Source: Escherichia coli
GTDB taxonomy: Bacteria > Pseudomonadota > Gammaproteobacteria > Enterobacterales > Enterobacteriaceae
Direction: 5' to 3' (one strand)
Assembly (NCBI RefSeq): GCF_041248615.1
Contig: NZ_CP158426.1
DNA length: 64,000 bases
Shown: one piece after another, positions 6,256 through 62,101 of the stretch
Layout of the letters: each line of letters opens with the position of its first letter
Numbering within the stretch: the first letter of the stretch is position 1
Position numbers and translations under genes: made by a program
The notes under the pieces: generated by a model
Told to the model about the DNA's origin: nothing
The model's input: the letters and a program-made list of their open reading frames with translations, nothing else
The model's database searches: none

Positions 6256-6257
6256 CA

Positions 6258-12863: not shown

Positions 12864-12865
12864 CG

Positions 12866-15318: not shown

Positions 15319-15328
15319 TTCCGTTTCT

Positions 15329-17718: not shown

Positions 17719-17729
17719 CTTTCAGCTCC

Positions 17730-18005: not shown

Positions 18006-18008
18006 AGG

Positions 18009-18500: not shown

Positions 18501-19129
18501 GGCACTGACACCAGTGTGGCAAAAACGTCAGGGCTATCAGCGCCTGCGGCGTTGGCCTCATCGGTATCAATATGCATTTCAAGACGCATATCCGGAGAGA
18601 CGCGAACAGCGACGTTTTCGAATATCAGTCGTCGCTCACCACCTTCAATGGCAACCGCCACTTTATCGCCATGCGTAACGCCATAAATCAGGGCATCCAG
18701 CGGAGACATATGAATATGCCGTTGCGCGACAATGACGCCAGATGTGATCTCCAGTTCCGCAAATGGGCTTATCAAACGAATCCCCGGAGTGCCGCTGAGA
18801 TCGCCTGACATGCGTAGCGGGGCGGTGATCCCTAACGTTCTGGCGTCCGTCCGGGAAATTTCCACCTGGCTTGCATTGCGTAGCGGCCCCAACAAGCGAA
18901 CGTTGTGCAATTTGCCTTTTGGTCCCTCCAGCGTAACAACCTGTTCAGCAGCGAATTGGCCAGGTTGCATTAACGGCTTTTTCTCGCTAATCGGTTGTTC
19001 AGGAAAAAGACGCAAATAATCCGCTGTTGAAAGATGAATATGGCGACTGGAAACGCCCAGTGGGATAGGGCGCTCGCGCATCTCATCCAGAATCTGGCTC
19101 ACTGTTTCCTGCAGGGTTTGTTTATCCAC
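18497..19129 (-). CDS. pduL: phosphate propanoyltransferase PduL
   Basis: 210-aa ORF; conserved position and size; His-rich metal-site residues (RHIHLS, RHIHMS). Confidence 0.85.
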   Translation of the reverse strand: MDKQTLQETVSQILDEMRERPIPLGVSSRHIHLSTADYLRLFPEQPISEKKPLMQPGQFAAEQVVTLEGPKGKLHNVRLLGPLRNASQVEISRTDARTLGITAPLRMSGDLSGTPGIRLISPFAELEITSGVIVAQRHIHMSPLDALIYGVTHGDKVAVAIEGGERRLIFENVAVRVSPDMRLEMHIDTDEANAAGADSPDVFATLVSVP

Positions 19130-19131
19130 TG

Positions 19132-19554
19132 CTACTCCCCTCGCTTATTGGCGTACAGGCAAAGTGAGCGGGGCTCACCTTTTTGCCGCTGACATGCCGG
19201 GTCAAGACACAAATTACAACTGATAATCTCTGAGGTGACGGTTGTTGCTGGTGTTTTGCTTGTTTCAACCGTCACGGTCAATGCTTCAATTGTGTGGGGC
19301 AGAATGCCGTCTCCCGGGCGGGCAATCACTTTGTGTGCGACAAGGCCATTTCGCTGTCCGGCGAAACTGGCTCCCGTCGCGATCGCCGCATTAACCGAGG
19401 CGACGTCACCGGTGATTTTGATGAGCGTCCAGCCTGAGCCATTGGTCTTCTCAAGGCCAACCAGCGTGATGGACGCGGCTTTTGCCATAGCGTCTGCGCA
19501 ACTGATGGCGAGAGCCAGACCACTGACTTCAAGTAATCCCAGTGATTGCTTCAC
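19132..19554 (-). CDS. pduK: BMC shell protein PduK (BMC domain + Cys-rich C-terminal tail)
   Basis: 140-aa ORF; N-terminal BMC domain (LGLLEVSGLALAISCADAMAKAA) and C-terminal CNLCLDPAC motif. Confidence 0.85.
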   Translation of the reverse strand: MKQSLGLLEVSGLALAISCADAMAKAASITLVGLEKTNGSGWTLIKITGDVASVNAAIATGASFAGQRNGLVAHKVIARPGDGILPHTIEALTVTVETSKTPATTVTSEIISCNLCLDPACQRQKGEPRSLCLYANKRGE

Positions 19555-19577
19555 GCTGTGCTCCTTAGCGAATGGGG

Positions 19578-19853
19578 TTATGCTGATTTAGGTAAAATAG
19601 CCTCAACATCACTGTGTGGGCGCGGGATGACATGGCAGGATTTCACTTCGCCAACGGCGCTTGCGGCGGCGCTTCCTGCATCAACGGCGGCTTTTACTGC
19701 GCCAACATCGCCACGGACCATCACCGTAATCAGACCCGAACCAATCTTTTCATAGCCAACCAGCTGCACGTTGGCGGATTTAACCATGGCATCTGCAGCT
19801 TCAATTGCGCCAACTAACCCTTTTGTTTCAACCAGTCCTAGTGCGTTGTTCAT
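19578..19853 (-). CDS. pduJ: BMC shell protein PduJ
   Basis: 91-aa canonical BMC-H protein [29 protein letters not shown]... Confidence 0.9.
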
Positions 19854-19872
19854 ACTGCATTTCTCCTGTGGA

Positions 19873-20223
19873 TTATGAGTGGAGTTCCCGGAAGGGAATC
19901 CCTTTTACCAGGCGGGCAGCGTTAGAGCCAATGCTGCGCCGGGCATGGTTATCTTGTTGATACATCAGCGTAAACAGTGGCGCTGATGCCGGTAAGTTTT
20001 TGTAATGCACAATCAGTTTTTCCTGATCGCAGGCAATGCCAACCAACAGGGGAGATTGACTAGCAGCCAGCCAGGCGCTATCGATAACTTCACCTGACGG
20101 AATGTGTTGAATGCGAAAGGGAATACCTTCCTCTTCAATGCCAAGAAGCACCTCATCCCATATAGTGATGCAGTTACCGATCTCCATGACGACGATGGCT
20201 GGTGCACGCTCTTTACTTTCCAT
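19873..20223 (-). CDS. pduH: diol dehydratase reactivase small subunit PduH
   Basis: 116-aa ORF overlapping pduG stop; conserved position. Confidence 0.85.
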
Positions 20224-22045
20224 GAATCGACTCCTTGTGCCAGGCGATGAGTAGCCCAGTAGCTACCGCGTTGCGCGGACCTTCGCTACCACGGATATTC
20301 CCCCGTCCGGCGACCAATCGATAATGCGCCAATGCATCGGTGACTAACTGCGGTACTTCGAAATCCAGCGAAGAACCGCCCACCAGAACGACGAACGGAA
20401 TATCGCGAATATTTCCGGCAGGGCTTACCTGACGTAGCGCGCGCAGGGCATTGGTTACGAAGACACGCTCTTTCGCACTGCGGCGGACAGCGCGTACTTT
20501 TTCCAGCGTCAAATCACCGGGAATGGGCACCAGTTCGTCGGGTTTCACTACACAGACGCGGGCAAATACATGGGGGGATAGGGGAGTAGGGAAGAACTGA
20601 ACGCTGCCATCTTCATGGCGTAAGTGGAACAGGCTTTCTACTTTTGCCAACGGGTACTTTTTGATTTCTTCTGCCAGATAACGATCATTTAAGCCCAGCT
20701 CACGAGCGATAATCATCGTTACCATGTCGCCCGCTCCCGCAAGGTGAGTGGCAACAATTTCTCCTTTCTGATTGATGATGGAGGCATCGGTAGAGCCTGC
20801 ACCTAAGTCCAGAATTGCCAGTGGACGTGTGGTTCCAGGGGTAGTCAAGGCCCCCTGAATGGCGGCTTCTGCTTCTGCGCCTCCGACCTGAACATCAACA
20901 TGCAGTTTTTGCTTAATTTCACTGGCGATCATTGCCATTTGCAGACGGTCGGATTTCACCATAGAGGCAATACCCACAGCCTGTTCCAGTGAAAATTCAC
21001 CTGCCAGACCGCCGGTTACGCTGACGGGGACAGAGGTATCTATCGCCAGCAAATCCTGAATAAAAATTTCGTTGCTGGGTTTGTTGGTCAGTTCCGCCAT
21101 GGTCTGGCGAACATGTTCCAGCATTCCGCCGATGTTGGTGCCTGGTTTTCCCGTCACGTTTTCCAGTTTTGGGCACTCACCGACCGCTTTCATAATGGCA
21201 TCGGCACCAGCAGCTACATCAACGCGCGTTGTGCGCCCGGCAGAAAGCAGTTCGATATTTCCGGCGGGTATCGAACGGGCTTTAACGTCGCCAGAAGGCG
21301 TTTTCACTACCACTGCTGAACGGTTGCCGATTAGCGCCCGCGCGACAGGAACAATATTTTTAGTCTCTTCAGCATTGAGGGCGAAAACGGTGGCAATCCC
21401 ATACGGGTTAGACAGGGTTTCGATAACTTTCCCGGGAACGGCAACTTCAATTGCAGCCAGCATGCCGAGCGGAATACGATCGATGTAGAGGACTTCATCA
21501 ACAATAGGTACAGCAATTTCCAGGCGGTTACTGACCAGCACGCCATCGTCGCGTTGCAGAATAACGCCAGTCAGCTGATATCCGGCACGTACGGAGGCGT
21601 TTATCATCGTCGCGATATCGGCAAAATCAAATGCCGATGACACCACCAGGATGTAAGGTGTGTCCGCCGGGCGTGTTAATAACTCTTGCGGAGTGATGGT
21701 GAGCCCTACGCCCAGCCCCACTCCGCCCGGAGTTTTCGGGTTGTGACCGATCATGGTTGATTCAGTGATGATGGTTTCAGTGATGGTTTCCATCGCCACA
21801 TCACCAATGACCGGAGTTGCTTCGTTGATACGAATAAGCGAAATATCGCTAACATTGATGCCGACTTTTTTCGTTGCCTGTGCGAGCGCCTCCTGAATAC
21901 CATGGACGTTACGCAACGTACCTTTAATTCCGGTGGTTTCCGCCAGGGCGCTACTCACGAACGACAACTCTCCAGTTGCACTGAGCGTTGCCAGCGCAAC
22001 CTCTGTTGATGAGTTGCCGATATCAATGCCTGCTATATATCGCAT
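20213..22045 (-). CDS. pduG: diol dehydratase reactivase large subunit PduG
   Basis: 610-aa ORF MRYIAGIDIGNSSTEVALA... (ASKHA/actin-like ATPase N-terminus). Confidence 0.9.
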   Translation of the reverse strand: MRYIAGIDIGNSSTEVALATLSATGELSFVSSALAETTGIKGTLRNVHGIQEALAQATKKVGINVSDISLIRINEATPVIGDVAMETITETIITESTMIGHNPKTPGGVGLGVGLTITPQELLTRPADTPYILVVSSAFDFADIATMINASVRAGYQLTGVILQRDDGVLVSNRLEIAVPIVDEVLYIDRIPLGMLAAIEVAVPGKVIETLSNPYGIATVFALNAEETKNIVPVARALIGNRSAVVVKTPSGDVKARSIPAGNIELLSAGRTTRVDVAAGADAIMKAVGECPKLENVTGKPGTNIGGMLEHVRQTMAELTNKPSNEIFIQDLLAIDTSVPVSVTGGLAGEFSLEQAVGIASMVKSDRLQMAMIASEIKQKLHVDVQVGGAEAEAAIQGALTTPGTTRPLAILDLGAGSTDASIINQKGEIVATHLAGAGDMVTMIIARELGLNDRYLAEEIKKYPLAKVESLFHLRHEDGSVQFFPTPLSPHVFARVCVVKPDELVPIPGDLTLEKVRAVRRSAKERVFVTNALRALRQVSPAGNIRDIPFVVLVGGSSLDFEVPQLVTDALAHYRLVAGRGNIRGSEGPRNAVATGLLIAWHKESIHGK

Positions 22046-22054
22046 AGTTCGTCC

Positions 22055-22573
22055 TTAATCGTCGCCTTTCAGTTTTTTGCGCTCGACATAAAGTTCCGCA
22101 GCTTCACGGACAAATGCAGCACAAATTTTGGCCTGATAACGCCGTTCAAGATCGTCAGCAATGGCAATAAGTTCTTGCTTAGTCGAACGATAAGGGCGTA
22201 ACGCATTGTAGATTTCGAGGATGCGATCATCCGGTACTGAGGTAAGCTCAGCGGCGCGTTCAAAATTCATCGCCAGGCGATCGCGACCAGCATCTCTGGC
22301 AATCGCGGCCTGAATACGCAATGTTTCAGGGGTTATACGCATATCCTGGGCGGTGACGTTATCGCTGAGTACATTTTCCAGAGTGAAATCGTCGAGCGTT
22401 TTATTGGTCGCCGTTTTAACCCATTCCGGATGTTTATTTGCCAGCGGATAATCCGTCACTTTGGCGCTCTGTATTGACGCGTTGGGTGCCGCAGAAACAG
22501 GAGCTGCATCCTGTAAACTGTTCATGCGATTCAACACGTCCCTGACCATCGACTCAATTGCATCGGTATTCAT
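22055..22573 (-). CDS. pduE: propanediol dehydratase small (gamma) subunit PduE
   Basis: 172-aa ORF in conserved order after pduD. Confidence 0.88.
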   Translation of the reverse strand: MNTDAIESMVRDVLNRMNSLQDAAPVSAAPNASIQSAKVTDYPLANKHPEWVKTATNKTLDDFTLENVLSDNVTAQDMRITPETLRIQAAIARDAGRDRLAMNFERAAELTSVPDDRILEIYNALRPYRSTKQELIAIADDLERRYQAKICAAFVREAAELYVERKKLKGDD

Positions 22574-22587
22574 GAAGGTTTCCTTTG

Positions 22588-23256
22588 TTAAAACGTCACG
22601 CGCAGTTCTTGCGGTTTTTTGCCAGTGACCACGTACTTCGTCTCTTTAATATGCAAAATGGCAGATTTGGCCTGGTATTTCGGCCGCGCCATTTGATCGT
22701 TGAGGGTCGGCACCGGTTGTGGAGACTCACGCTTTGCATAACGCGCGGCGTTTTTGCCAATCTGACGATAAGTTTCCAGCGTCAACAAAGGCGCTTGTGG
22801 GAATAGTTCCAGGTTAGACAAGGGAGGAAGACCTTGCTGGTGGATAACCGTTGTGCCTTTCGACTGAATACCGATAGCAATACCTGAACCACTAAGACGA
22901 TCGCCTTCGACTGCTACGAATGCGACATCGGACGATTTAAAGCAGCGAATCACACGGGCTTTAATGCCTTCTTCTTCGATACCAGCAATCACTTCGCGCA
23001 AGATGTTTTTATGCGGAATACCGATGATATTGACGGTTTGCGCCAGGCCGAACGCCGGGCCTACAGCAATAATGACTTCATCTTGCTGAGTGCCTTGTTG
23101 GGCTTCGCCAATTTCGGCCAGAAAAGTTCCGGTATCTGGCGCGGAAGAGACAGTTGCACAGGCAGGTGCGCGAAATGAAACGGGCTTGTCGCTGGTTTGC
23201 ATTTCTGCCAGCACGTCTTCGATAATCTGACGCAGTAATTTTTCGTTAATTTCCAT
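22588..23256 (-). CDS. pduD: propanediol dehydratase medium (beta) subunit PduD
   Basis: 222-aa ORF in conserved order after pduC. Confidence 0.88.
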
Positions 23257-23265
23257 TTCTCACCC

Positions 23266-24930
23266 TTAGTCAATTTCGTTGGGATCAAGTGCACCGGGAA
23301 TATTTTTGATCTCTTCCCAGCGTTCCCCTTGCAGGCGGTAACCTGTAGCCGGTCCGGCGTAATCATTGACGTCATTGACCGCAGAGAGCACTTGTCCGTC
23401 ATCGACGATGATGGCTGAGGTATGGAGATAATCGCCGGTCAGTTTTGCTTTTTGCATGTTGAGCATGTCTTGGGCGACATCGGTAAAACCGCCTTGCGCC
23501 AGGGCTTTCACCACTTCCAGGCTGTTCCGGTTTTTATTGATAATCTCCTGGGCGAACTTGATGTCTTCCACAATATTGCGCTCAGGCATATCTTTTGAAC
23601 CGTGGGCATAGGTTGCCGCTTCGACTTCTTCATCGGTAATAGGCGGTAGTCCCATACCGGCAAAGACAGCCTGTAAAGCGCGAGCGGCTTTATTGCGGAT
23701 AGCGATAACATCTTCTTCGCGTACTGGTCGCAGGCCGCCATCAACCTTCAGGTCACGCTGAATGACGTTGTAATCATCGAAGTCTTCAGCATCTTCGTTT
23801 GAACCAGCAAACATGTTGTCGTAGTTCGGCACAGCGGAAAAACCGGAAGAGATAAAGTCGGTACCTGGCAGAAACTGCATCAGGAAACGTGCGGTACGGC
23901 GCATATCCGAGTGGGTAAAGGTCTGGTCATTACTGGAGGCGCATTCCAGATCCAGCGATGAGCAAATTAAGTTTTCCGCTAATACTGCGCGGATGCCTGA
24001 TGGCACAGCCGATGGAACACCGATGCAGCTTACCGAACCATTCTGTAGACCCTGAACTCCTGCGGCTTTGGTGATGTAAATGCAACGAGCCTCGAGATAA
24101 AGCATTGATTTGCCTTCCGCGTAACCCATCTGTACTTCAGAGCCGGAGCCGGAAGTAAAGCGCATTTTTAAGCCGCGAGACGCATAGGATGACGCGAGAA
24201 ATCCTTTTGACCACGGGGTGTCATCGCCATCGGTGAAAACAGGTTCTGTACCATAGACAGAAATTGTTTCGGCGTAACAGGTGTGGCCTAACATACCGAG
24301 TTTCAGTTCGGTGGCTTCTTCCAGTGAACACTGGGTCAAGACGCCCGGACGTCCCACCTGTGAGCCGACCAGCAGGGCGATGGCGTTGAACGGGGCATAG
24401 CGAGCAACGGCAACGGTGGTTTCCTGTTCATCAAACCCGCGCCATGCGCCTTCAGCTGCGTCGGCGGCAATTTGTACCGGGTTATCTTTGACGTTGGTGA
24501 CGTGAGCCTGTTGTGATGGTGTTCGACGGGCGCGCATTTTCTGCATCGCCATCATCATCTCTACCACGTTCATCTGCGAAACAACTTCGACGATTTTTGC
24601 AGGCGTCATTGCTGTGGTAAGGGGAACGATATCGCTACGTTTGACATTTGGATCGCACAACATATTGGCAAGTTTTACCGAATCCATCGCGATGACTTCT
24701 TCTGCACGCGCGAGATTGATGCCGTAGCGGGCGATAAAGTGGTCGATCAGGTCAAACTGGCTGGCGGGTTTTCCATCCAGTTCGGTAACGACGCCGTTAA
24801 CAATTTTGATTGACGGTTTAGGATCGTTCGGGCTTTCCATCGCAATGAAGCCTTCTTCAATCCACTCTTTAACGAAACCGTCCTGGTTGACCGGGCGTTT
24901 TGCCAGTGCTTCAAATCTTTTCGATCTCAT
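23266..24930 (-). CDS. pduC: coenzyme B12-dependent propanediol dehydratase large (alpha) subunit PduC
   Basis: 554-aa ORF MRSKRFEALAKRPVNQDGFVKEWIEEGFIAMESPNDPKPSIK... Confidence 0.92.
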   Translation of the reverse strand: MRSKRFEALAKRPVNQDGFVKEWIEEGFIAMESPNDPKPSIKIVNGVVTELDGKPASQFDLIDHFIARYGINLARAEEVIAMDSVKLANMLCDPNVKRSDIVPLTTAMTPAKIVEVVSQMNVVEMMMAMQKMRARRTPSQQAHVTNVKDNPVQIAADAAEGAWRGFDEQETTVAVARYAPFNAIALLVGSQVGRPGVLTQCSLEEATELKLGMLGHTCYAETISVYGTEPVFTDGDDTPWSKGFLASSYASRGLKMRFTSGSGSEVQMGYAEGKSMLYLEARCIYITKAAGVQGLQNGSVSCIGVPSAVPSGIRAVLAENLICSSLDLECASSNDQTFTHSDMRRTARFLMQFLPGTDFISSGFSAVPNYDNMFAGSNEDAEDFDDYNVIQRDLKVDGGLRPVREEDVIAIRNKAARALQAVFAGMGLPPITDEEVEAATYAHGSKDMPERNIVEDIKFAQEIINKNRNSLEVVKALAQGGFTDVAQDMLNMQKAKLTGDYLHTSAIIVDDGQVLSAVNDVNDYAGPATGYRLQGERWEEIKNIPGALDPNEID

Positions 24931-24948
24931 AAATCTGCCTCAGAGAAT

Positions 24949-25761
24949 TCAGATGTAGGAAGGGCGATCGTTTTTCGGTGTATCGCCGAGAGTCGAAAGC
25001 ACGGTTTTACCGATTTCGCGTGCGGAGATGACCGCCTGGCGGACTGCGCCGGAGTCACCCGAGATAATCAGAATGACTTCATTGCTGTAGCTGGTGCCTT
25101 GAGCGGGGGAGCTGTATGCCACAACATCCACATTGGCGGACTTCAGCGCGGTGTCTGCCATCAGAACACCCACAGCAGCCGGAGCGCCGACAATAACGCC
25201 GCAAGCCCGTCCCAATGGTGCACCAAACGCTTTTTCCAGTGCATAGCTGGCGCGGGCGGTATATTGCAGCTCAAGATGTCCGGCTTCGTTGGCATAGACA
25301 TCGCCAAAGGTTCGATCGAGTTCTTTCAGGGCAACTTCAATACCGCGTTTCACGTCGGAAACATCGTTGCCACCTAAGAGGATCAATGAGCCGTGTCCGG
25401 CACCGCCTTTAGTATCGCGAGGAAGTTCAATGCTAATAACTTCAGTGTTGGTGGCTTTTACCGCTTCATCAGCGGCCATAATGTGTGGACCTGCGCCAAT
25501 ACGCGCACCCAGAATGCCAATGGAACGATAGCGTTTTTCAAGTTTCATTGCGTCCAACAGGGCGCTATCAACGTTCGCAATGACCAGACCTACAGTGTCG
25601 CCAATAGCGGTGCCAACAAATTCTGTTAATGTGCAGCTTTTTTCTGCCATAGCCGTCTCTCGTATTTGATGAGTGGTTTTCGGGAGAACCTCATGCTCTG
25701 GCGTCGCTACGCGAGCGATGACCTGCGCCATGATCTGTTCGACCAGTTCATTGCTGCTCAT
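24949..25761 (-). CDS. pduB: BMC shell protein PduB (tandem BMC; internal start at Met38 would give PduB')
   Basis: 270-aa ORF; second in-frame Met 37 codons in matches the known PduB/PduB' arrangement. Confidence 0.9.
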
Positions 25762-26042
25762 GGGTTAATTCCCTTTGGTAAGATTTTTTCGACATCGGTA
25801 TGTGGGCGGGGAATAACATGTACGGCTTTTACTTCGCCGACGTTACGCGCAGCTGCGGCACCTGCGTCTGTTGCCGCTTTTACCGCCCCGACATCACCAC
25901 GAACGATGACGGTCACCAGCCCGGAACCTATTTTTTCGTAGCCGACCAGCAAAACATTTGCCGACTTCACCATGGCGTCTGCGGCCTCTATGGCGGCAGT
26001 TAAGCCTTTGGTTTCTACCATTCCTAACGCTTCTTGTTGCAT
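25758..26042 (-). CDS. pduA: BMC shell protein PduA
   Basis: 94-aa canonical [34 protein letters not shown]...; first gene of operon. Confidence 0.92.
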
Positions 26043-26553
26043 AAAGACCTCGCCTGGATTTTTTTGACGATATGACTATAAAAAAAAGCGAGGAAAAAGA
26101 ATGGCTGACTTAATCGGCTAATGAGAAAAATTAATAGAGAACAAATATTATAAAATTGCTTTTATGAACTATATGTTGTTAATTTATTAGTTGTTTTGTG
26201 GATATTTCAATGTGAATTAATTGCGTTGGCTAGTGAGTTTAATCGCGAGTAATATTTCGTTGAGTTTAGTTCGAGGAAGGAACTGTGATATTTGTTTCAA
26301 TTTTATTATATCATGATGGCAATTTTTTATTGTGAAAGTTTGACAGTAATTATTACTTTCAACACTGATTAACGCTGTGTTGCATGATTCGGCAATGACA
26401 ATAATTTGTTATGTTAGCACGATTTTTACACGAGTCTGTCATGCATGTTGGCAATATTTTCTGCAGAGCAATTTTTTATAGTTGCGCTCGGTATACACAA
26501 CAATCAGCGCATAGTTGGCTGATAAAGAAAAACTCCGTAAAGAAGGTGTCACT
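26043..26553. promoter_or_regulatory. divergent pdu / pduF-pocR control region
   Basis: 510-bp AT-rich non-coding interval between divergently oriented pduA and pduF; in Salmonella this interval carries PocR-, CRP- and IHF-dependent promoters. Confidence 0.6.
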
Positions 26554-27363
26554 ATGAATGATTCACTCAAGGCGCAATGCGTTGCCGAGTTTTTAGGCAC
26601 CGGACTGTTCCTCTTTTTTGGCATTGGTTGTTTGTGCGCCCTGAAAGTTGCCGGGGCAAGTCTGGGACTGTGGGAAATTTGTATCATTTGGGGGTTAGGG
26701 ATTTCGCTTGCTGTTTACCTTACGGCAGGTATTTCCGGCGCTCATCTCAACCCGGCAGTTACCATTGCTCTGTGGCTGTTTGCCTCTTTCCCAGCCCGTA
26801 AAGTGCTGCCATTTTGTGTGGCGCAATTAGCGGGTGCTTTTGGTGGTGCGATTCTGGCATATTCTCTCTACAGCAGTTTATTTACCGATTTTGAATCTGC
26901 TCACAATATGGTGCGTGGTAGCGCAGAAAGTTTACAACTCGCCAGTATCTTCAGTACTTATCCGGCAGCGGCGATTAATGTATGGCAAGCTGCGTTGGTC
27001 GAAGTGGTCATAACGTCCATGTTAATGGGGTTGATTATGGCGTTGACCGATGACGGTAATGGCGTACCCAAAGGACCACTTGCGCCTTTACTTATTGGTA
27101 TTCTGGTTGCTGTTATTGGTGCTTCTACCGGACCATTAACCGGTTTTGCCATGAATCCAGCGCGTGATTTTGGACCTAAGATTTTCACCTGGCTTGCGGG
27201 GTGGGGAGAAATTGCGATGACTGGTGGACGCAATATTCCTTATTTCATTGTACCCATTATTGCACCGATCATTGGGGCATGTGTTGGTGCGGCGATTTAT
27301 CGCTATCTCATTGCAAAGAATTTACCTGTCAATAGTGTAGCGCCTAAAGAAATTAGCGAATAA
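26554..27363 (+). CDS. pduF: propanediol diffusion facilitator (MIP/aquaglyceroporin family)
   Basis: Two NPA motifs (HLNPAVT, AMNPARD); start placed at MNDSLKAQ (ORF track extends 13 codons upstream); start uncertain. Confidence 0.85.
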   Translation: MNDSLKAQCVAEFLGTGLFLFFGIGCLCALKVAGASLGLWEICIIWGLGISLAVYLTAGISGAHLNPAVTIALWLFASFPARKVLPFCVAQLAGAFGGAILAYSLYSSLFTDFESAHNMVRGSAESLQLASIFSTYPAAAINVWQAALVEVVITSMLMGLIMALTDDGNGVPKGPLAPLLIGILVAVIGASTGPLTGFAMNPARDFGPKIFTWLAGWGEIAMTGGRNIPYFIVPIIAPIIGACVGAAIYRYLIAKNLPVNSVAPKEISE

Positions 27364-27565
27364 CGAAATAATCTGGCAGTTATAAACGTTTATTTTTTTA
27401 CTGTTTGTGATCTGCTTTCCGAACTTATTAAAAAGTCTCCCGCTTCATGGAGGCTTTTGTTATTGTCCTTTGTGCTTCTCGTCAGTAAATCATCAGGGAT
27501 GATGTGAAGATTAAATGTAAAACAATTGTTTTGCTATAACAATAAATTAACTGGGAGGTTTTATC

Positions 27566-28480
27566 ATGATTTCTGCGGCGACACTTAATTCAGAACTCAT
27601 TAATAAAATCGCGCAGGATTTTGCGCAGGCGACCAGCCTTGCGGTTGTCGTGGTCAATATTCACGGCGATGAAATTTCCGAGCTGTTTAACTTCACTCCA
27701 TTTTGTCAGATGATGCGGCAACACCCTCAGCTAAGCACTCGATGTCGCATGAGCGATCGTTGTGGGGGCCTGGAAGCCTCTAAATCCGATCAGCCTTGTA
27801 TTTATCGCTGTCATGCCGGATTAACCGATTTCTCTATTCCACTGGTAATCGCCGGGCATTTAGTCGGTTTTGTATTGTGCGGGCAAGTTCGTCTGCGTAA
27901 TGATGATGTCGATTTGGTCGATATTCTGAATGTCGATGATTGCTGGCAGGCAGATCCCGAATTACTTAATGAATTCCGCAAAGTTCCTGAGATGGATTAC
28001 TCAAGAGTTATGGCCTCTGCTGATTTGTTGAAGTTGATTGTGGAAAATTGCCTCAAAAAACAACTCAATTTTGTGGTTATTAAAGAGAACAAATTTCAGT
28101 CAGATTCGGTGCGCCAGACTCGTGCGCCTAATCCCCACGACAATAAAATGAAAAAAGCTTTACGCTATATTGATGCGCATTTATCAGACGATTTGCGTCT
28201 GGAAGATGTCGCCTCGCACGTTTATCTAAGTCCTTATTATTTCAGTAAGTTATTCAAGAAATACCATGGAATCGGTTTTAATGCGTGGGTAAACCAACAA
28301 CGGATGGCCAGCGCTCGTGAGTTACTGTGCCATAGTGACTGGAGCATCGCCAGTATTGCGCGTAATTTAGGTTTTTCGCAAACCAGTTATTTTTGCAAAG
28401 TTTTCCGTCAGACTTATCAGGTTACGCCGCAGGTGTATCGACAGCAAGTGAGTGAAAATGCGGTGATGGAAACGGTATAG
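27566..28480 (+). CDS. pocR: AraC-family regulator of pdu/cob expression PocR
   Basis: 304-aa ORF, C-terminal AraC-type HTH (YLSPYYFSKLFKKYHGIGFNAWVNQQRM...), position next to pduF. Confidence 0.88.
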   Translation: MISAATLNSELINKIAQDFAQATSLAVVVVNIHGDEISELFNFTPFCQMMRQHPQLSTRCRMSDRCGGLEASKSDQPCIYRCHAGLTDFSIPLVIAGHLVGFVLCGQVRLRNDDVDLVDILNVDDCWQADPELLNEFRKVPEMDYSRVMASADLLKLIVENCLKKQLNFVVIKENKFQSDSVRQTRAPNPHDNKMKKALRYIDAHLSDDLRLEDVASHVYLSPYYFSKLFKKYHGIGFNAWVNQQRMASARELLCHSDWSIASIARNLGFSQTSYFCKVFRQTYQVTPQVYRQQVSENAVMETV

Positions 28481-28584
28481 AGTAAATGCCCCAAAAAAAG
28501 AGGACGGTTTAAATAAACTCTGCAATGAATAATTAACGTTATTTACCTGTTATGGGAAAAGTGAAATCAGCTCATAACATACGC

Positions 28585-28735
28585 TGACAGGTGTGGCACA
28601 TTTGTGCCTGGGAAGAGGGTGAAAATCCCTCGCAGCCCCCGCTGCTGTAATGCTGACAAACCCGAAAATGCCACTGATCGCGAGATTGGGAAGGTCGGGA
28701 GAGGATGACGCTAAGCCAGAAGACCAGCCAGTCAG
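28585..28735 (+). promoter_or_regulatory. cobalamin (adenosylcobalamin) riboswitch
   Basis: Conserved core gggaagagggtgaaaatccctcgcagcccccgctgctgtaa and B12-box-like gccactg...gggaaggtcgg...agccagaagaccagcc; same position as the Salmonella cob operon leader. Confidence 0.75.
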
Positions 28736-28964
28736 TCAATACCAACAACTTCGGTGGGAAGTGGGTTGCCCGGAAGCGTCCGGTAGAGTACCGGCGCGTC
28801 TTTATACCCCTACCACCCTGAAAGGATCAGGGTATGGCGGCATCATTTAGTTCTTTCATCGCAGTGCCGACAGGCACCAGGGCTGCACTTAAGGTGTGGC
28901 AATCTTGTTTCATGGCTCATCAACCAGACCGCCATTACAGGAAACTAAGTGGAGGGCGAGAGGC

Positions 28965-29402
28965 ATGAAAACGATAAAACCCGAATCGATAGCTCTTTTT
29001 TGCCTCTTATCTGGAGATGTGGATCTGGCGAAACATTTGGCTGAAATATTGCCAATAACTTGTTTTGTTGGTGAGGACTGGCAGCAAGATTTCCAGCCTC
29101 TTGACGGTGGGCCTGTGCAATCGTTATCAGATGTGTATGGCGATTATTCAGTGCTGCTATTGATAGCAGCTGAAAGCGAGATATCCGTACCAGAATGGCT
29201 CGCTCATTCTGAAGGAACGACGGTAATTGTGATTGCAGAACACAATACCCGTTTGCTGACTGGTCCGGCTGGTGGGGCTGTAGCATTGATCCATTATCTG
29301 AATGAAATCTGTCATTCCAGAGAAACCGCTGTCAATGACGCATTTTGTCGTACGTTAACACGAGGAAGTCTGGCTATTCCGCAATGCCATCTTCTTTCGT
29401 AA
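28965..29402 (+). CDS. hypothetical protein (146 aa) between B12 riboswitch and cobU
   Basis: ORF with SD-like gagagg 3 nt before ATG at 28965 (ORF track starts at 28896); no family recognised by eye. Confidence 0.45.
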   Translation: MKTIKPESIALFCLLSGDVDLAKHLAEILPITCFVGEDWQQDFQPLDGGPVQSLSDVYGDYSVLLLIAAESEISVPEWLAHSEGTTVIVIAEHNTRLLTGPAGGAVALIHYLNEICHSRETAVNDAFCRTLTRGSLAIPQCHLLS

Positions 29403-37197: not shown

Positions 37198-37273
37198 TCC
37201 TCTGTAGTTCAGTCGGTAGAACGGCGGACTGTTAATCCGTATGTCACTGGTTCGAGTCCAGTCAGAGGAGCCA
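37198..37273 (+). tRNA. asnW: tRNA-Asn (GUU); integration target of downstream island
   Basis: 76-nt sequence identical to asnU/asnV on plus strand. Confidence 0.95.
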
Positions 37274-37434
37274 AATTCAAGTTTTCATGCTTATCTGTAC
37301 GTCTCTATTTGTTTACGATTCAGTAAGTTAGCGTGAAAATCCTTCCCGGTGCGTATCTGGTTTTCTCTCTGTATCGGGATAATTTGGTGGTCAGATCTGG
37401 GGTCAGTTTGGTTCGATTCTGGAGTGACCCCCAA

Positions 37435-38696
37435 ATGTCTTTAAACGATTCTAAAATCCGCAAGTTAAAACCCTCTTCCCGTCTGGTAAAACTCTCCGAC
37501 TCTCACGGTCTGTATCTGCTCGTCAATCCGGGCGGTTCACGCATCTGGTATCTCAAATATCGTTTCAACGGAAAAGAATCCAGAGTCAGTCTTGGCGCAT
37601 ACCCGCTTGTCTCACTGGCAGAAGCCAGGCAACAGCGCGACGGTATCCGTAAGTTACTGGCGCAGAATATCAACCCGGCGCAGCAGCGCATGGCGGAGAA
37701 AGCGGCCTGCTCCCCTGAAAAGTGCTTTAAGGCAGTGGCGCTGGCCTGGCACAAAACCAACAAAAAATGGTCGGCTGATTATGCCGCCCGTATTCTCGCC
37801 AGTATGGAAAACCATATCTTCCCGGCGATTGGTCATCTGCCAGTTGCCACTCTTAAAACGCAGGATTTACTGCTTTGTTGCGGGTTATCGAGGATAAAGG
37901 CTTTCTGGAAGTCGCGTCCCGAACCCGGCAGCAACTCAGCAACATCATGTGCTATGCCGTTCAGCAGGGGCTTACCGAAAGCAATCCGGCGCAGCATCTG
38001 GATGGCGTTGTCGCCTCACCCGTAAAGAATCACTACCCCGCGTTACTGCTGGAGCGGTTGCCCGAACTGCTTGGCCGCATCGGTGACTATCAGCAGGGCC
38101 GGGAGTTAACACGGCTGGCGGTGGTGCTGACGTTGCACCTGTTTATCCGTTCCAGCGAACTGCGTTTCGCCCGCTGGAGCGAGATCGATTTCAGGCACAA
38201 AATCTGGACCATCCCCGCCACCCGCGAGGCAATCGACAAAGTACGGTTTTCGGGGCGTGGCGCAAAAATACGTACCCCGCATATCGTGCCGCTCTCCCGC
38301 CAGGCGATTGCCATTCTGAAACAGATACAGGAGCTTTCCGGCCATCTGGATCTGGTGTTTCCCGGTGATCATAACCCGTACAAGCCAATGAGTGAAAACA
38401 CCACCAACCGGGCGCTACGCCTGATGGGGTATGATACGAAAACTGAAATCTGCGGGCATGGACTCAGGGCGATGGCCTGTAGCGCCCTGGTGGAGTCGGA
38501 GCTGTGGTCACGCGATACGGTGGAGCGGCAAATGAGCCACCAGGAGCGTAACAGCGTGCGGGCAGCCTATGTGCATAAAGCGGAGCATCTGGAGGCCAGA
38601 AAGGCCATGATGCAGTGGTGGTCGGATTATCTGGATGTGTGCCGCGAGGGGTATGTTGCGCCGTACATTTATGCCCGGCAGCATAAGGCAGCCTGA
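37435..38696 (+). pseudogene. P4-type tyrosine integrase, interrupted by a frameshift near 37870
   Basis: N-terminus MSLNDSKIRKLKPSSRLVKLSDSHGLYLLVNPGGSRIWYLKYRFNGKESRVSLGAYP typical of P4-family integrases; reading frame changes between ORF 37333-38025 and ORF 37875-38696. Confidence 0.8.
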
Positions 38697-42734: not shown

Positions 42735-45700
42735 ATGAGCGGAAAACCGGCAGCACGTCAGGGCGATGCCACAATGAAAGGTGGCCCGATAGTCCAGGGG
42801 TCGGCAGGCGTGAGGATTGGCGCGCCAACCGGCGTGGCCTGTTCAGTGTGCCCCGGCGGATTCACTTCCGGTAACCCGGTGAATCCGCTGCTCGGTGCAA
42901 AAGTACAGCCCGGCGAAACCGATTTCGCGCTGCCCGGCCCGTTACCGTTCGTGCTCTCCCGCACCTACAGCAGCTACCGGACGAAAACCCCTGCGCCCGT
43001 CGGTATCTTCGGTCCTGGCTGGAAAGCACCCTTTGATATCCGCTTACAGATACGCGATAACGAACTGATACTCAATGATAACGGTGGCAGAAGCATTCAT
43101 TTTGAGCACCTGTTTCCCGGTGAGGATGGCTTCAGCCGCAGCGAATTATTCTGGCTGGTGCGCGGCGGCGTGGCGAAACTGAATGAAAGTCACCGTCTTG
43201 CCCCACTCTGGCAGGCTCTGCCGGAAGAACTCCGCATGAGTCCGCATATTTATCTGGCGACGAACAGTCCGCAGGGGCCGTGGTGGATACTCGGCTGGAG
43301 TGAGCGGGTACCGGGTGTGGATGAGGTGCTGCCTGCGCCATTGCCGCCGTACCGGGTGCTGACCGGCCTGGTGGACCGCTTCGGGCGTACCCTGACCTTC
43401 CGGCGTGAGGCAGTTGGCGAATTTACCGGGGAAATCACCGGCGTGACCGATGGCGCAGGCCGTCAGTTCCGCCTGGTGCTGACCACGCAGGCGCAGCGGG
43501 CGGAAGAGGCCCAGCAGCAGGCGGTTGCAGCCGGAGCAAAACGACCAGATATCCCGGTTTCATTGCCGGACTATACAGAATATGGCCGGGATAACGGCAT
43601 CCGCCTGTCAGCGGTGTGGCTGACGCATGACCCGGAATACCCGGAGAATTTACCTGCCGCGCCACTGGTGCGCTACGACTGGACGCCACGCGGTGAACTG
43701 GCGGCGGTGTATGACCGCAGCGGTACGCAGATGCGCCACTTTACTTACGATGATAAATACCGGGGCCGGATGGTGGCGCACCGTTACGCAGGCAGGCCGG
43801 AGATGCGTTACCGCTACGACGACATCGGGCGCGTGACGGAACAACGTAATCCGGCGGGTTTAAGCTACACCTATCAGTATGAGAAAAACCGCATCATCAT
43901 CACCGACAGCCTGAACCGGTGCGAGGTGCTGCATACAGAAGGCGAAGCCGGGCTGAAACGGGTGGTGAAAAAAGAGCACGCTGACGACAGCGTCACACAG
44001 AGTCAGTTCGATTCCATTGGCCGCCTTCAGTCACAGACGGATGCGGCAGGCCGGACGACAGAATACAGTCCGAATGTGGTGACGGGTCTCGTCACACGCA
44101 TCACCACGCCGGACGGCAGGAAATCGGAATTTTACTATAACAACCAGAACCAGTTAACCTCAGCATCCGGGCCTGACGGACTGGAAATGCGCAGGAAATA
44201 TGATGAGTACGGGCGTCTGACGCAGGAAACCGCTCGCAACGGCGATATCACCCGCTACAGTTATGATAATCCGCACAGTGAATTACCCTCTGCAACTGAA
44301 GATGCGACGGGTAGCCGCAAGCAGATGACGTGGAGCCGTTACGGGCAGTTACTGACTTTCACCGACTGCTCAGGCTACCAGACCCGTTATGAATACGACC
44401 GCTTTGGTCAGATGACGGCGGTCCACCGTGAGGAAGGTGTCAGTCTTTACCGCAGCTATGACAGCCGTGGTCAGTTAATCTCGGTGAAAGATACGCAGGG
44501 CCGTGAAACGCAGTATGAGTACAACGGTGCAGGCGACCTGACCGCCATTATCACGCCAGACGACAACAGAAGCGAGACACAGTACGATGCGTGGGGAAAG
44601 GCCGTCAGTACCACGCAGGGCGGGCTGACGCGCAGCATGGAATACGACGTTGCCGGACGTGTCATCAGCCTGACCAACGAGAACGGCTGTCACAGCGACT
44701 TCAGTTACGATGTGCTCGACCGCCTGATACAGCAGAGCGGCTTTGACGGGCGGACGCAACGTTACCGTTACGACCTGACCGGGAAACTCACGCAGAACGA
44801 GGATGAGGGGCTTGTCACCCTCTGGCACTACGACGAATCGGACCGTATCACACACCGCACGGTGAACGGCGAACCGGCAGAGCAGTGGCGGTATAACGCC
44901 CACGGCTGGCTGAAAGAAATCAGCCACCTGAGCGAAGGTCACCGGGTGGCGGTGCATTACGGCTATAACCGTAAGGGACGTCTCACCGGCGAGCGCCAGA
45001 CGGTGCATAACCCGGAGACGGGGGAACTGCTCTGGCTGCATGAGACAAAACACGCCTACAACGAACAGGGTCTGGCAAACCGCGTCACGCCGGACTGCCT
45101 GCCTGCTGTGGAGTGGCTGACCTACGGCAGCGGTTACCTGGCGGGGATGAAGCTGGGCGACACGCCGCTGCTGGAGTACGCGCGCGACCGCCTGCACAGA
45201 GAAACGGTGCGCAGCTTTGGCAGCATGGCAGGCAGTAATGCCGCATACGAACTGACCAGCACATACACCCCCGCAGGCCAGTTACAGAGCCAGCACCTGA
45301 ACAGCCTGGTGTATGACCGTGACTATGGGTGGAATGACAACGGCGACCTGGTGCGCATCAGCGGCCCGCGACAGACGCGGGAATACGGCTACAGCGCCAC
45401 GGGCAGGCTGGCGAGTGTGCGCACCCTCGCACCGGACCTGGACATCCGCATCCCGTATGCCACGGACCCGGCGGGCAACCGGCTGCCGGACCCGGAGCTG
45501 CACCCGGACAGTACACTCACAGTGTGGCCGGATAACCGCATCGCGGAGGATGCGCACTATGTCTACCGCCACGATGAATACGGCAGGCTGACGGAGAAGA
45601 CGGACCGCATCCCGGCGGGTGTGATACGGACGGACGACGAGCGGACCCACCACTACCACTACGACAGCCAGCACCGCCTGGTGTTCTACACGCGGATACA

Positions 45701-46916
45701 GCATGGAGAGCCACTGGTCGAGAGCCGCTACCTCTACGACCCGCTGGGACGGCGAATGGCGAAAAGGGTATGGCGGCGGGAGCGTGACCTGACGGGGTGG
45801 ATGTCGCTGTCGCGTAAACCGGAGGAGACATGGTACGGGTGGGACGGCGACAGGCTGACGACGGTGCAGACTGACACCACGCGTATCCAGACGGTGTACC
45901 AGCCGGGAAGCTTCACGCCGCTCATCAGAATCGAAACAGACGTGACCGAACTGGAGAAAGCGCAGCGGCGAAGCCTGGCGGAGAAGTTACAGCAGGAAGG
46001 GAGTAAAGATGGTCACGGCGTGGTGTTCCCGCCTGAACTGGTGCGGCTGCTGGACAGGCTGGAGGGGGAAATCCGGGCAGACCGTGTGAGTGACGAAAGC
46101 CGGGCGTGGCTTGCGCAGTGCGGGCTGACGGTGGAGCGGCTGGCGGCACAGATCGAGCCAGTTTATTTGCCTGAGCGAAAAATACATCTTTATCACTGCG
46201 ACCACCGGGGACTGCCGCTGGCGCTTATCAGTACTGAAGGTGCAACGGAATGGCGTGGGGAGTATGACGAGTGGGGGAATCAGCTTAATGAGGAGAACCC
46301 GCATCATCTGTTCCAGCCATACCGCCTGCCGGGGCAGCAGTACGATGATGAATCGGGGCTGTGCTATAATCGTTATCGTTACTACGAGCCGTTACAAGGG
46401 AGGTATATTACACAGGACCCGATTGGGTTAAATGGGGGGTGGAATTTATATAAATATCCGCTGAATCCAATAAATTATGCAGATCCTCTTGGCTTAGCCG
46501 TAGATATAAACCACTTCCCAGTCAACGAAGACATACGAAATTATGCAGAGAAAGTTTGGAATAATCCTAATATCATTACAATTGGAACACATGGTGATCC
46601 TCAATCAGTATATGATGAAAATTATAATAAGATAGATGTCAAGACATTAGCTAATGAGGTTCGAAATCATCCTAAATTTAAACCTGGAATGTCAGTAAGA
46701 CTGTTATCCTGTAATACAGGAAAAGGAAATAACTCTTTTGCACAGCAATTGGCAGATGAACTAGGTGTGAGAGTCTATGCTCCTGACCAATATGACTGGT
46801 ACTATTCAAATGGTAAGGTAGAGCCTTGGGGAGGATTCTATGATGCAAACAATCAATTGCAAATGGACACGAATCAGCCTGGACATGAGTTTACATTCAA
46901 GCGAAGGAAACCATAG
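42735..46916 (+). CDS. rhs: Rhs-family polymorphic toxin (PAAR-like N-terminus, YD-repeat core, divergent C-terminal domain)
   Basis: 1393-aa ORF; N-terminus [11 protein letters not shown]...[26 protein letters not shown] like E. coli RhsA-C; many YDxxGR repeats; DPIGL...DPLGL core/toxin boundary motif. Confidence 0.9.
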
Positions 46917-46918
46917 GT

Positions 46919-47521
46919 ATGAGGTATTTTCTCTTTATATTTATAACAATCCCCCTTATCTCTGGAGGTCATATGAGTAATGATAGCGAAAAGATAATAT
47001 CAACATATTCGCTCAATTTTTTATCACCAGATGATGTGAGGAAAGAAGAACTTAAGGCATCACAAGGTGATAGTGATGCTGCATTTAAATTGTACAAATA
47101 TTACCTTTTTTGCGAGCCAAAATCATACAGAAAACAGCACGAATGGTTAATAATATCGGCAAATAATGGAAATGCTATAGCTCAATATAACTTATCAAGA
47201 GAACTTGAGTCAGAAGGAAAAGTAGATGAATCAATACAATGGCTGAAAAAATCAGCGGAACATGGTAATAATTATGCACAATATCAGATGTCAAAATATT
47301 TATTAAAAATAGGTGATATTAGAGGATCGGAATATTATCTAAACTTATCTGCGGATAACGGATGTGTATTTGCAATAAAAGATATTATCAAAAATATGAT
47401 GGATAGTGGAAGGTACGATGACGCCCTCATTTGGGTTGAAAAATTGAAAAAATTGTATCCTGACACAAATACCGAACTTTACATACAAAAAATAACGCAG
47501 AAAAAAAAGCAATCCAAATAA
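46919..47521 (+). CDS. putative Rhs immunity protein (Sel1-like repeat protein)
   Basis: ORF starts 3 nt after rhs stop; low GC like the rhs C-terminal region; Sel1-like repeats; stronger SD (ggagg) precedes internal ATG at 46970, so true start may be there. Confidence 0.6.
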   Translation: MRYFLFIFITIPLISGGHMSNDSEKIISTYSLNFLSPDDVRKEELKASQGDSDAAFKLYKYYLFCEPKSYRKQHEWLIISANNGNAIAQYNLSRELESEGKVDESIQWLKKSAEHGNNYAQYQMSKYLLKIGDIRGSEYYLNLSADNGCVFAIKDIIKNMMDSGRYDDALIWVEKLKKLYPDTNTELYIQKITQKKKQSK

Positions 47522-47808
47522 TAATTATATATAATTACTCGCACAGAGTTACAGTATTGCAAGAAATATATCTAGCATATAAAGTCGCCGCCAGTAAAGA
47601 TAAAGTACTGTGTAATCCTTCCTCCCATATAGGGGTAAAAACTTAGCATCCAGTGCCCTCGACTTAATTTTTAGTATTTTCTCTGTGAAGTGACACTTCG
47701 TAGGATTCAGTTCATGTTTACCAGAAAAAAGGTGGTCATTCTGGTGGTCTTGACAATCTCGATTTTTTGTTTTAGCTTTCCAATCAGCCAATTAATGGCT
47801 ACGGCGAT

Positions 47809-47828
47809 CCCAGTCAGAGGAGCCAAAT
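47809..47828 (+). repeat. island-distal direct repeat (attR-type copy of asnW 3' end)
   Basis: ccagtcagaggagccaaatt identical to tRNA 3' end at 37258-37277. Confidence 0.8.
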
Positions 47829-48276
47829 TTTAGTTTTGAGACATCTCTATGAGTCTCAAGACAGTTAAAAAATAAAAATTATTTTTACCCGGTTACCTTG
47901 TAAAAAAGTGACCGGGTTTTTTGATTTCTGTGTTTCGTGCGCTTAATCGAGTCTCACGCTTCAGTGAGCAAATTGCCCCCCAACAGACATCACGATTCGC
48001 AAGGTCAAAAACTTCGTTCCGTGAAGTACCGTACAAAGGTATAGAGAAAAATACCTTATGCTGGATGTCGCTGTCGCGTTTTTATCGGGAAACTATGCGT
48101 AATTGCCACTTTGCCTTCTGTAATCAGAAAAAGAAGAACTGGAATTTTAATAAATATTATTTCTCTGGGAATGGGGATTTTTTATAATCAATATGACGAG
48201 TTGAACATTATATTTTTATAATGATTATATGAGATTAAAGAAATCTGCCATAAAGACAGATTTCTTTAAAATATAA

Positions 48277-53836: not shown

Positions 53837-61802
<7,966 letters not shown>

Positions 61803-62101
61803 GCTTACCTTCCCTGAACGAGCTAACATAAATGCGCCCTTTCTAGCACAGCGAAAAAAAGTAAATCCTGATAGCAATATGATTGAAAATTAATAACTTT
61901 TCGTTAAGCAGTTTTGGGTGTGAGTTGCAAGAGGGGAGACTACTGAATTACTCAAGTTTTATAATCGAGGGGAAAATGGTGATGGCGTCCATAGCAAAAC
62001 GCCCTCAACCATAAAGGTCGAGGGCGCTTAAGATGTCAAAAACCCGCTATCCGTTAAAAAGCAATGCTCAACTAAGGTCAGTGACATTGCGCTAAAAAGC
62101 G

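Follow-up and report, generated by a model that had tools for sequence, protein, structure and literature searches.

An Escherichia coli Rhs tip with a predicted clan-CD cysteine peptidase fold and its YibG-family Sel1-like partner

The 64,000-nucleotide stretch of Escherichia coli chromosomal DNA analysed here (from contig NZ_CP158426.1; hereafter the window) carries an rhs gene followed closely by a second open reading frame (ORF). We examined the C-terminal tip of the Rhs protein, a predicted toxin domain (hereafter CT), and the product of the downstream gene, its candidate immunity protein. The Rhs gene and its parts are laid out as follows.

42735–46916, + strand: Rhs ORF, 1393 amino acids (aa), translated ORF
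42735–46496, + strand: Rhs core, residues 1–1254, a YD-repeat shell with an N-terminal PAAR motif (NCBIfam RHS_core; GC 0.598)
46416–46496, + strand: core/toxin boundary, DPIGL(1228)-x17-DPLGL(1250) (from the translation; Rhs_assc_core ends at residue 1254)
46497–46913, + strand: predicted C-terminal toxin domain (CT), Rhs residues 1255–1393, 139 aa
46590–46595, + strand: His1286-Gly1287, predicted general base, directly after strand IITIG (conservation and model strand 26–30)
46710–46712, + strand: Cys1326, predicted nucleophile, after strand VRLLS, the only Cys of the domain

The NCBIfam equivalog model RHS_core (NF041261) covers residues 1–1254 (E=0, 2592 bits against a cut-off of 2000) and leaves residues 1255–1393 over. 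Within the core, YD repeats are recognised by the YD_repeat_2x model (E 1e-33) and the Rhs_assc_core model lies at residues 1177–1254. A literal PAAR at residues 5–8, inside the RHS_core model, was read from the translation and not found by a PAAR profile. By analogy with known Rhs proteins, the DPIGL-x17-DPLGL boundary is the autoproteolysis motif that would free the CT. GC content is 0.598 in the core, 0.374 in the CT and 0.315 in the downstream ORF, against a whole-window average of 0.493, and GC at third codon positions (GC3) falls from 0.70 in the core to 0.29 and 0.27. An original prediction, made from the letters of the window, had described a low-GC tip of about 140 codons and an adjacent 200-codon ORF as an exchanged toxin/immunity cassette, and these compositions bear the description out. 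Its start of the tip at about residue 1255 was right as well, although the coordinate given, 46490, was not, as the CT begins at nt 46497. The exchanged cassette is supported because the break in composition coincides exactly with the end of the RHS_core model (residue 1254/1255), and because the toxin and immunity pair turns up again attached to other Rhs cores and in orphan cassettes. The protein has the make-up of an Rhs polymorphic toxin, in which an Rhs core ends at a DPxGL boundary and the variable C-terminal domain beyond it differs in composition.

The AlphaFold2 model of the CT (predicted local distance difference test score, pLDDT, 84.5; predicted template modelling score, pTM, 0.81) is built from alternating beta and alpha elements and has the alpha/beta caspase-haemoglobinase fold of clan-CD peptidases. 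Strands 26–30 and 66–70 of the model precede the His and the Cys respectively (IITIG-T-H1286-G and VRLLS-C1326). The His (codon at nt 46590–46592) comes before the Cys, is followed by Gly and, like the Cys, stands behind a hydrophobic beta-strand, a conserved arrangement that is also characteristic of clan CD. The His-then-Cys motifs noticed earlier are thus present, but they are 40 residues apart and not about 45. Among 56 diverse members that we aligned, Cys1326 is invariant (56/56) and His1286-Gly is conserved in at least 90%; the CT contains one Cys only, as do 46 of the 56.

Foldseek searches of AFDB with the CT model returned a Microbulbifer ‘Peptidase C80 family protein’ (45% identical) and many ‘DUF4347’ proteins. 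When the 56 members were compared singly with Pfam, DUF4347 was matched by 3 at E<=1e-3 and by 10 at E<=0.1, Peptidase_C80 by 6 at E<=0.1, and CHAT and C13 by one each. The best DUF4347 score in the family (1.7e-5) belongs to an actinobacterial copy. The CT alone gave no credible match in Pfam or NCBIfam even at E<=10, none of the curated clan-CD family models in these collections matched it significantly, and PADLOC reported nothing; matches to DUF3642 and LRR_10 (E 0.06–0.1) were dismissed as noise. Searches of PDB sequences with the CT alone, with the 56-member profile and with an actinobacterial sub-profile (the closest to DUF4347) yielded nothing significant, and therefore no sequence-level bridge to Tce1, a Pseudomonas effector considered below, or to the cysteine protease domains (CPDs) of larger toxins.

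The link to clan CD comes from the predicted fold, the borderline Pfam matches in relatives and the His/Cys dyad. On this basis it is highly probable that the CT adopts a compact clan-CD (CPD/DUF4347-like) cysteine peptidase fold, as the original prediction had guessed; structure prediction with Foldseek, suggested there as a check, produced a confident model and C80/DUF4347-labelled homologues. The CT is a divergent relative of DUF4347 and C80 and a member of neither Pfam family. From the computed fold and the conserved dyad we infer that the domain probably acts as a peptidase. With 139 aa, against 216–251 aa for the CPD structures 3fzy and 3ho6 (115–118 residues aligned), the CT is so short that a full inositol hexakisphosphate (InsP6) beta-flap is unlikely.

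A word-indexed homology search with the CT found 9 relatives only, and the family became visible by exhaustive profile search, which gave 3,540 representatives (clusters at 50% identity) at E<=1e-3 and 1,490 at E<=1e-10. The CT-type domain is at the extreme C-terminus in 121 of the top 155 proteins. Such C-terminal copies often follow the DPxGL junction of Rhs/YD proteins of 1,000–2,400 aa; a pattern tally of Rhs-type junctions (36/115) is a clear undercount and gives no frequency. In E. coli O157:H7 Sakai the homologue ECs_0237, located directly after hcp-vgrG in a type VI secretion system (T6SS) cluster, has a CT that is 38% identical to that of the window (E 2e-29; hidden Markov model, HMM, E 1e-38), and a Variovorax homologue (P0058) comes after VgrG and DUF2169. 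A different architecture is seen in 38 proteins that hold 2–7 copies of the domain, giant actinobacterial proteins (Actinoplanes, Catenulispora, Thermomonospora). In these proteins the domain and effector-like modules alternate; in five of them (P0010, P0012, P0013, P0021 and P0030; 1,200–6,800 aa) each copy precedes such a module, which is RelA_SpoT in the case of P0030 and a kinase-like segment in that of P0010. One of the giant proteins is annotated as WXG100-like and another as ‘DUF4347 domain-containing’. In MARTX toxins, CPDs self-process and thereby release effectors. By analogy, the actinobacterial multi-copy layout resembles a MARTX-style design with self-processing, in proteins that are likely substrates of type VII secretion systems (T7SS).

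The second half of the cassette consists of the downstream gene and its putative export signal.

46919–47521, + strand: candidate immunity gene, YibG-family Sel1-like repeat protein, 200 aa from the first ATG
46919–46969, + strand: predicted Sec signal peptide MRYFLFIFITIPLISGG, immunity residues 1–17 (hydrophobicity, homologues, low pLDDT)

This ORF begins 2 nt past the rhs stop codon. Taken alone it matches Pfam weakly (Sel1, E 0.7; TPR_19, E 0.13), and a match to NCBIfam MerG (23 bits against a cut-off of 350) was set aside as generic repeat resemblance. A 13-member profile of its family, compared with solved Sel1-like repeat (SLR) proteins, matches 4bwr (1e-42), 6ok3 (7e-41), LpnE (1e-31), SEL1L and HcpC (4e-5), as well as 5jkp (E 8e-8) and 5jjo (E 6e-7), which we take to be PA5087/PA5088. 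The AlphaFold2 model (pLDDT 90.7) is a helical solenoid over residues 29–199, with ten regular helices over 37–199 and low pLDDT over residues 1–27, and its Foldseek matches are LpnE, Oxalobacter Sel1 proteins, SEL1L and c5321. Profile and model together support the assignment of the downstream ORF as a predicted Sel1-like repeat protein, so that the Sel1-like character first proposed for it stands, and the structural check made on it gave a solenoid matching SLR proteins.

Co-occurrence across Rhs loci, which had also been named as a check, is tight. A YibG-family gene stands directly behind the toxin in 16/16 lineages examined of the toxin sub-clade. The paired loci are those of the window, Sakai, K-12, Rheinheimera (3 species), Arsukibacterium, Delftia, Variovorax and five Streptococcus genomes, together with two marine pairs and two metagenomic YD toxins. 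At ten reference-genome loci (Rheinheimera, Delftia, Arsukibacterium and Streptococcus) and on the marine contigs the immunity HMM matches with E-values of 1e-29 to 1e-57, and at more distant YD toxins with 1.7e-20 and 2.7e-14; in Variovorax the match is weak (2.7e-4). Sakai ECs_0238, annotated ‘yibG’ beside ECs_0237, is matched at 1e-29. By BLASTP the window ORF itself matches four of the paired lineages at 1e-7 to 6e-16. Since the His/Cys motifs are conserved in a large family and the gene pair recurs in unrelated genomes, neither is a product of chance. The computed linkage argues strongly that toxin and downstream gene are a toxin/immunity pair, a predicted relationship that we consider very probable. 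Neutralisation would presumably occur by the immunity protein binding the toxin and blocking its active site in the periplasm.

Several paired loci show further features. A marine metagenome contig (L002, 1–8139) is an array of orphan cassettes, including DUF4329 and Imm26, with two toxin/immunity pairs (3974–4837 and 6549–7709) and an Rhs-core remnant between them. Of five Streptococcus mitis-group genomes (L013–L017, ~4900–6500), one (L013) has an uninterrupted cassette whose toxin ORF ends after ~102 of 139 domain positions, and in the other four the toxin cassette is frameshifted. The signal-less Streptococcus immunity gene is intact in 4/5; in L015 it is truncated and joined in frame with part of a toxin, and in L014 it is accompanied by a second, tandem paralogue. 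In appearance these are orphan immunity islands of oral Gram-positive bacteria. Between the signal peptide and the repeats, the immunity proteins share a conserved segment, [ST]-T-G-S-x-[FY]-[FW], for example ISTYSLNF in the window (residues ~27–33, nt ~46997–47017), TSTGSTFF in Rheinheimera and ISTGSIYW in Streptococcus. It might be a pseudo-substrate (plug) or a segment that contacts the protease.

A member of the pair lies in K-12. The pseudogene yibJ, downstream of rhsA, encodes an Rhs tip that matches toxin-profile positions 2–82 and ends just after SCNTGKGQNSFAS, and its neighbour YibG (b3596) matches the immunity family at E 4e-24, has a clear signal peptide, MKACLLLFFYFSFICQLHG, and is annotated from the signal-bearing start (locus at 6222–7639 of L020). 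Because the yibJ toxin is truncated, the K-12 pair is an orphan, immunity-only cassette. Among 5,426 complete E. coli genomes, 3,503 have the yibJ'-yibG pair and 376 the O157 variant. YibG is ~28% identical to the immunity protein of the window, which makes cross-protection unlikely. No functional literature on YibG was found in the literature searched.

The conserved partner gene also bears on whether the target could be eukaryotic. The CT might be an anti-eukaryotic effector like Tce2 or the MARTX/Tcd CPDs, with the Sel1-like gene encoding an adaptor or chaperone. C80 CPDs function within eukaryotic cells, and virulence roles have been weighed in an in-silico paper of 2020 on enterohaemorrhagic E. 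coli (EHEC). The P. aeruginosa proteins Tce1 (PA0256) and Tce2 (PA2372), reported in 2026 as DUF4347/CPD-like Hcp3 cargo of the T6SS (PMC13323088; PDB 9qpe), show no toxicity in E. coli and are regarded as anti-eukaryotic. In yeast, Tce2 has a Cys-dependent toxicity (C115S), and it is the sole experimental analogue of the dependence on the dyad predicted here. However, neither Tce1 nor Tce2 is linked to an immunity gene, whereas the toxin sub-clade has one at every locus examined; they are also free Hcp3 cargo and not Rhs tips, and have no detectable sequence match to the CT of the window. Moreover, immunity genes persist beside broken toxins in K-12 and Streptococcus, and orphan immunity genes kept near truncated or frameshifted toxins are a signature of interbacterial conflict. 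The C80 CPDs themselves (V. cholerae MARTX, C. difficile TcdA/TcdB) are much longer than the CT in the matched structures, and the InsP6 flap is probably absent from the CT, which differs from them further in being terminal, immunity-paired and without a Pfam C80 match of its own. An anti-eukaryotic role is thus the least probable of the readings we considered and is highly improbable. Activation by inositol hexakisphosphate, for which a basic beta-flap is used, action in cis and release of effectors inside eukaryotic cells are the known properties of C80 CPDs.

The start codon of the immunity gene bears on whether its product is exported. RefSeq places the start at an internal ATG, 46973, giving 182 aa and dropping the signal-like N-terminus. 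The best 12-residue Kyte-Doolittle (KD) mean is 2.57 for the form beginning at the first ATG and 0.82 for that beginning at the RefSeq start. A hydrophobic N-terminus is present in 10 of 11 Gram-negative immunity lineages (the window and 9 others), with best KD means of 2.1–3.3, compared with 0.6–0.8 for signal-less forms. Examples are MMRYIFILFMLVTM in Delftia and MKLFFLIILVTTMTGF in Rheinheimera, and one Gram-negative homologue is a lipoprotein form with a textbook LAGC lipobox. In Sakai, ECs_0238 (L019, 26270–26365) is annotated from an internal Met (MDNSKHS...), and extending the frame upstream gives MKVFTFLLIIMVCLYNFGVRA. Gene callers disagree on the start, and database clusters have lengths of 182, 200 and 224 aa. 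Immunity genes of this family often seem to have been given a start at an internal Met, which hides the signal peptide, a recurring annotation error. Since the segment is conserved at the protein level, we suggest that the N-terminus is translated and the protein exported. The possibly signal-like N-terminus remarked on in the original prediction is therefore shared by homologues, which argues against the RefSeq start; the signal peptides are predictions from hydrophobicity and homology alone. If the immunity protein is exported, the toxin is suggested to act in the periplasm, following the usual logic of T6SS effectors and their immunity proteins, and the single Cys of the toxin is compatible with an oxidising compartment. 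By this analogy we regard a periplasmic site of action as an even call.

The same pair and fold would also be consistent with a toxin that acts in the cytoplasm, like Cpe1 or StbD-CT, the N-terminus of the immunity protein being either untranslated (start at 46973) or a membrane anchor. This reading gains from the internal ATG chosen by RefSeq, which has a strong GGAGG Shine-Dalgarno sequence 4 nt upstream, and from the Variovorax and Streptococcus immunity homologues, which are without any signal, so that localisation is not uniform across the family. It also gains from the characterised interbacterial cysteine-protease toxins, which work in the cytoplasm. Opposed to it are the hydrophobic N-termini and the lipobox already described, as conservation of an untranslated segment is unlikely. 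The first ATG lies just behind the rhs stop codon, and the same tight coupling or overlap is found in homologues; for K-12 YibG, the annotated start is the one that includes the signal. Even a signal anchor with K/R at its extreme N-terminus would still put the repeats in the periplasm, as follows from the positive-inside rule. Taking both sides together, we consider cytoplasmic action unlikely, while giving it more weight than any other alternative.

A clan-CD fold might also serve a chemistry other than simple proteolysis of a protein. Its target could be the stem peptides of peptidoglycan or the link between Lpp and peptidoglycan, or it could catalyse transpeptidation or ligation in the manner of legumain-type and GPI-transamidase enzymes. 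An exported immunity protein would fit such a role, and most known periplasmic T6SS toxins, namely the Tae, Tge and Tle families, hit the cell wall or membrane. However, the closest structural and sequence relatives of the CT (C80 CPDs, DUF4347, gingipain) are protein endopeptidases, and we therefore consider another chemistry quite unlikely and favour proteolysis.

The toxin class has precedents. Zhang, de Souza, Anantharaman, Iyer & Aravind described in 2012 (PMC3482391) a Tox-Caspase class with a caspase-like alpha/beta fold and a His and a Cys, C-terminal-most in RHS-repeat toxins with the T6SS among the export routes, and present as internal, presumably self-processing arrays in actinobacterial T7SS/WXG toxins. 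The family described here resembles it in fold, dyad, terminal Rhs position and arrayed architectures. The immunity families catalogued with Tox-Caspase are Imm36 and Imm57, in contrast to the Sel1-like/YibG-type immunity found here, and the class is itself a computational prediction. The 2020 EHEC in-silico paper matched the O157 CT by I-TASSER to the RtxA CPD 3fzy and its neighbour to the Sel1-like HcpC, without a family definition, the conserved pairing or a signal peptide. ECs_0237/ECs_0238 belong to the toxin and immunity families of the window and are a different allele, beside vgrG in a T6SS island as opposed to the asn-tRNA island of the window. To call the tip of ‘unrecognised type’, as was done at the outset, was consequently an overstatement: Tox-Caspase was catalogued in 2012, the O157 homologue was found RtxA-CPD-like in 2020, and homologues are labelled Peptidase C80 or DUF4347. 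The present analysis contributes the size of the family, the YibG-type Sel1-like partner, the probable export of this partner with its mis-called starts, and the link to K-12 yibJ/yibG.

A Sel1-like repeat immunity protein is also known for a T6SS phospholipase D effector (Tli5: PA5087/PA5088), for which the 2020 EHEC paper cites Yang et al. 2016, and shows that this fold can serve effector neutralisation. PA5087/PA5088 counter a lipase and not a peptidase, are larger and belong to another sub-family, and the match to them reflects only generic repeat resemblance. The interbacterial cysteine proteases Cpe1 and StbD-CT, papain/C39-type enzymes that cleave GyrB/ParE and have dedicated immunity, one of them from E. 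coli, were rejected as members of the same family, being clan-CA/C39 enzymes with Cys-then-His order and different immunity families that work in the cytoplasm; they are functional analogues only. A preprint on Stv/PF21527 concerns a different domain and is relevant only for its repeated C80-effector pairs.

The cassette sits at the right-hand end of a genomic island of which the remaining features are as follows.

37198–37273, + strand: tRNA-Asn (GTT), island integration site (ARAGORN; 3' end repeated at 47805–47830)
37333–38696, + strand: degraded tyrosine integrase in two overlapping ORFs (37333–38025 and 37875–38696)
47805–47830, + strand: att-like direct repeat of the tRNA-Asn 3' end (CCAGTCAGAGGAGCCAAATT), right island boundary (repeat search)

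A repeat search of the window found the direct repeats flanking the island at 37253–37305 and 47805–47857. The island of ~10.5 kb is inserted at tRNA-Asn between yeeO and yeeN/amn, with rhs and its neighbour gene at the right end. As it is bounded by repeats and carries an integrase, the whole rhs gene, and not the tip alone, was horizontally acquired. GC stays low (0.358) for ~750 nt past the immunity gene (47522–48276), over the right-hand repeat and up to yeeN, and no reading frame in this segment matches the toxin or immunity profiles. The DNA around the cassette is 100% identical to that of E. coli strain N3 and other isolates, and the N3 counterpart of the integrase is given in RefSeq as a frameshifted tyrosine recombinase. 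Of the 5,426 complete E. coli genomes, 91 have the exact cassette, always as a single copy and with at least 99% identity; their sources are humans, poultry, cattle, swine and water.

Elsewhere in the window, ~17 kb (11809–29062) are missing from the otherwise collinear N3 (98.7% identity over the flanks), where a truncated EutP/PduV-family gene lies at the junction; the window strain therefore probably retains a microcompartment-type operon lost by N3. A giant Ig-like adhesin (53837–61877, - strand) is present as two ORFs of 818 and 1702 aa separated by a gap of ~475 nt. In N3 it is a single 8.6-kb CDS, to which the window aligns at no more than 90–96% identity, with internal repeats, and the adhesin of the window may be a variant or interrupted allele.

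The state of the island raises the question of whether the cassette is an inactive relic with no cognate T6SS and no present function. The frameshifted integrase and the lack of any T6SS gene within the 64-kb window would fit such a reading, as does K-12, which carries Rhs genes but no T6SS. On the other hand, neither the 4.2-kb rhs ORF nor the immunity ORF is interrupted, the catalytic residues are intact, and the cassette is nearly invariant in carrier genomes from varied sources. We therefore consider an inactive relic very unlikely and favour a functional cassette.

Taken together, these observations suggest the following model. The Rhs shell would enclose the 139-aa CT, and the DPxGL-x17-DPxGL boundary would cut it loose, as in known Rhs proteins. 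A T6SS encoded elsewhere in the genome would fire the PAAR-tipped Rhs into a neighbouring bacterium. The freed CT would be a minimal caspase/CPD-fold cysteine peptidase, with His1286 as base and Cys1326 as nucleophile and without an inositol-phosphate flap, and the protein or peptide that it cleaves would most likely belong to the cell envelope or periplasm. Protection of the producer and of related cells would come from the Sec-exported YibG-family protein, presumably through binding in the periplasm and occlusion of the active site. The fold, the conserved dyad and the linkage of the two genes are computed results; proteolysis, T6SS delivery of the window copy, the periplasmic site and the substrate are the parts of this model that we infer. 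Besides the points on export given above, the following tell against the model. Delivery of the window Rhs copy by a T6SS is assumed by analogy, with no vgrG, hcp or other T6SS genes within the island or the 64-kb window. The assignment of the dyad is based on residue order, conservation and predicted strand position, not on the His-Cys distance. In a divergent toxin sub-clade (P0007-like) the neighbour is an unrelated Zn-ribbon gene instead of a YibG-type gene, and a search of the literature turned up no measurement of enzymatic activity or toxicity on any protein of the toxin family. On balance we lean, cautiously, towards the chain as a whole, from a PAAR-Rhs toxin with a clan-CD peptidase tip through periplasmic action to an exported Sel1-like immunity protein. 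More tentatively still, and with some doubt, the family may be the first of periplasmic antibacterial clan-CD toxins, independent of inositol phosphate and countered by exported Sel1-like inhibitors, with K-12 YibG as an orphan immunity protein.

As the toxin class had already been catalogued by computation, the tip in the window adds a member to Tox-Caspase, and the finding is of moderate interest: unsurprising to a specialist, yet a well-defined and testable system. The interbacterial cysteine-protease toxins characterised in the literature searched are all papain-like (clan CA), and the caspase/CPD fold is known chiefly from toxins directed at eukaryotes and from proteases that serve in cell death or defence. 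A large family (~3,500 representatives), present in pathogenic E. coli including O157:H7 and tightly linked to immunity, is a ready experimental system. It could reveal what controls a minimal CPD-like protease when inositol hexakisphosphate plays no part, lead to a bacterial envelope or periplasmic substrate, and give a function to K-12 yibG. If the proposal is true, about two-thirds of E. coli genomes would encode, in YibG, an orphan immunity protein that counters a periplasmic clan-CD toxin.

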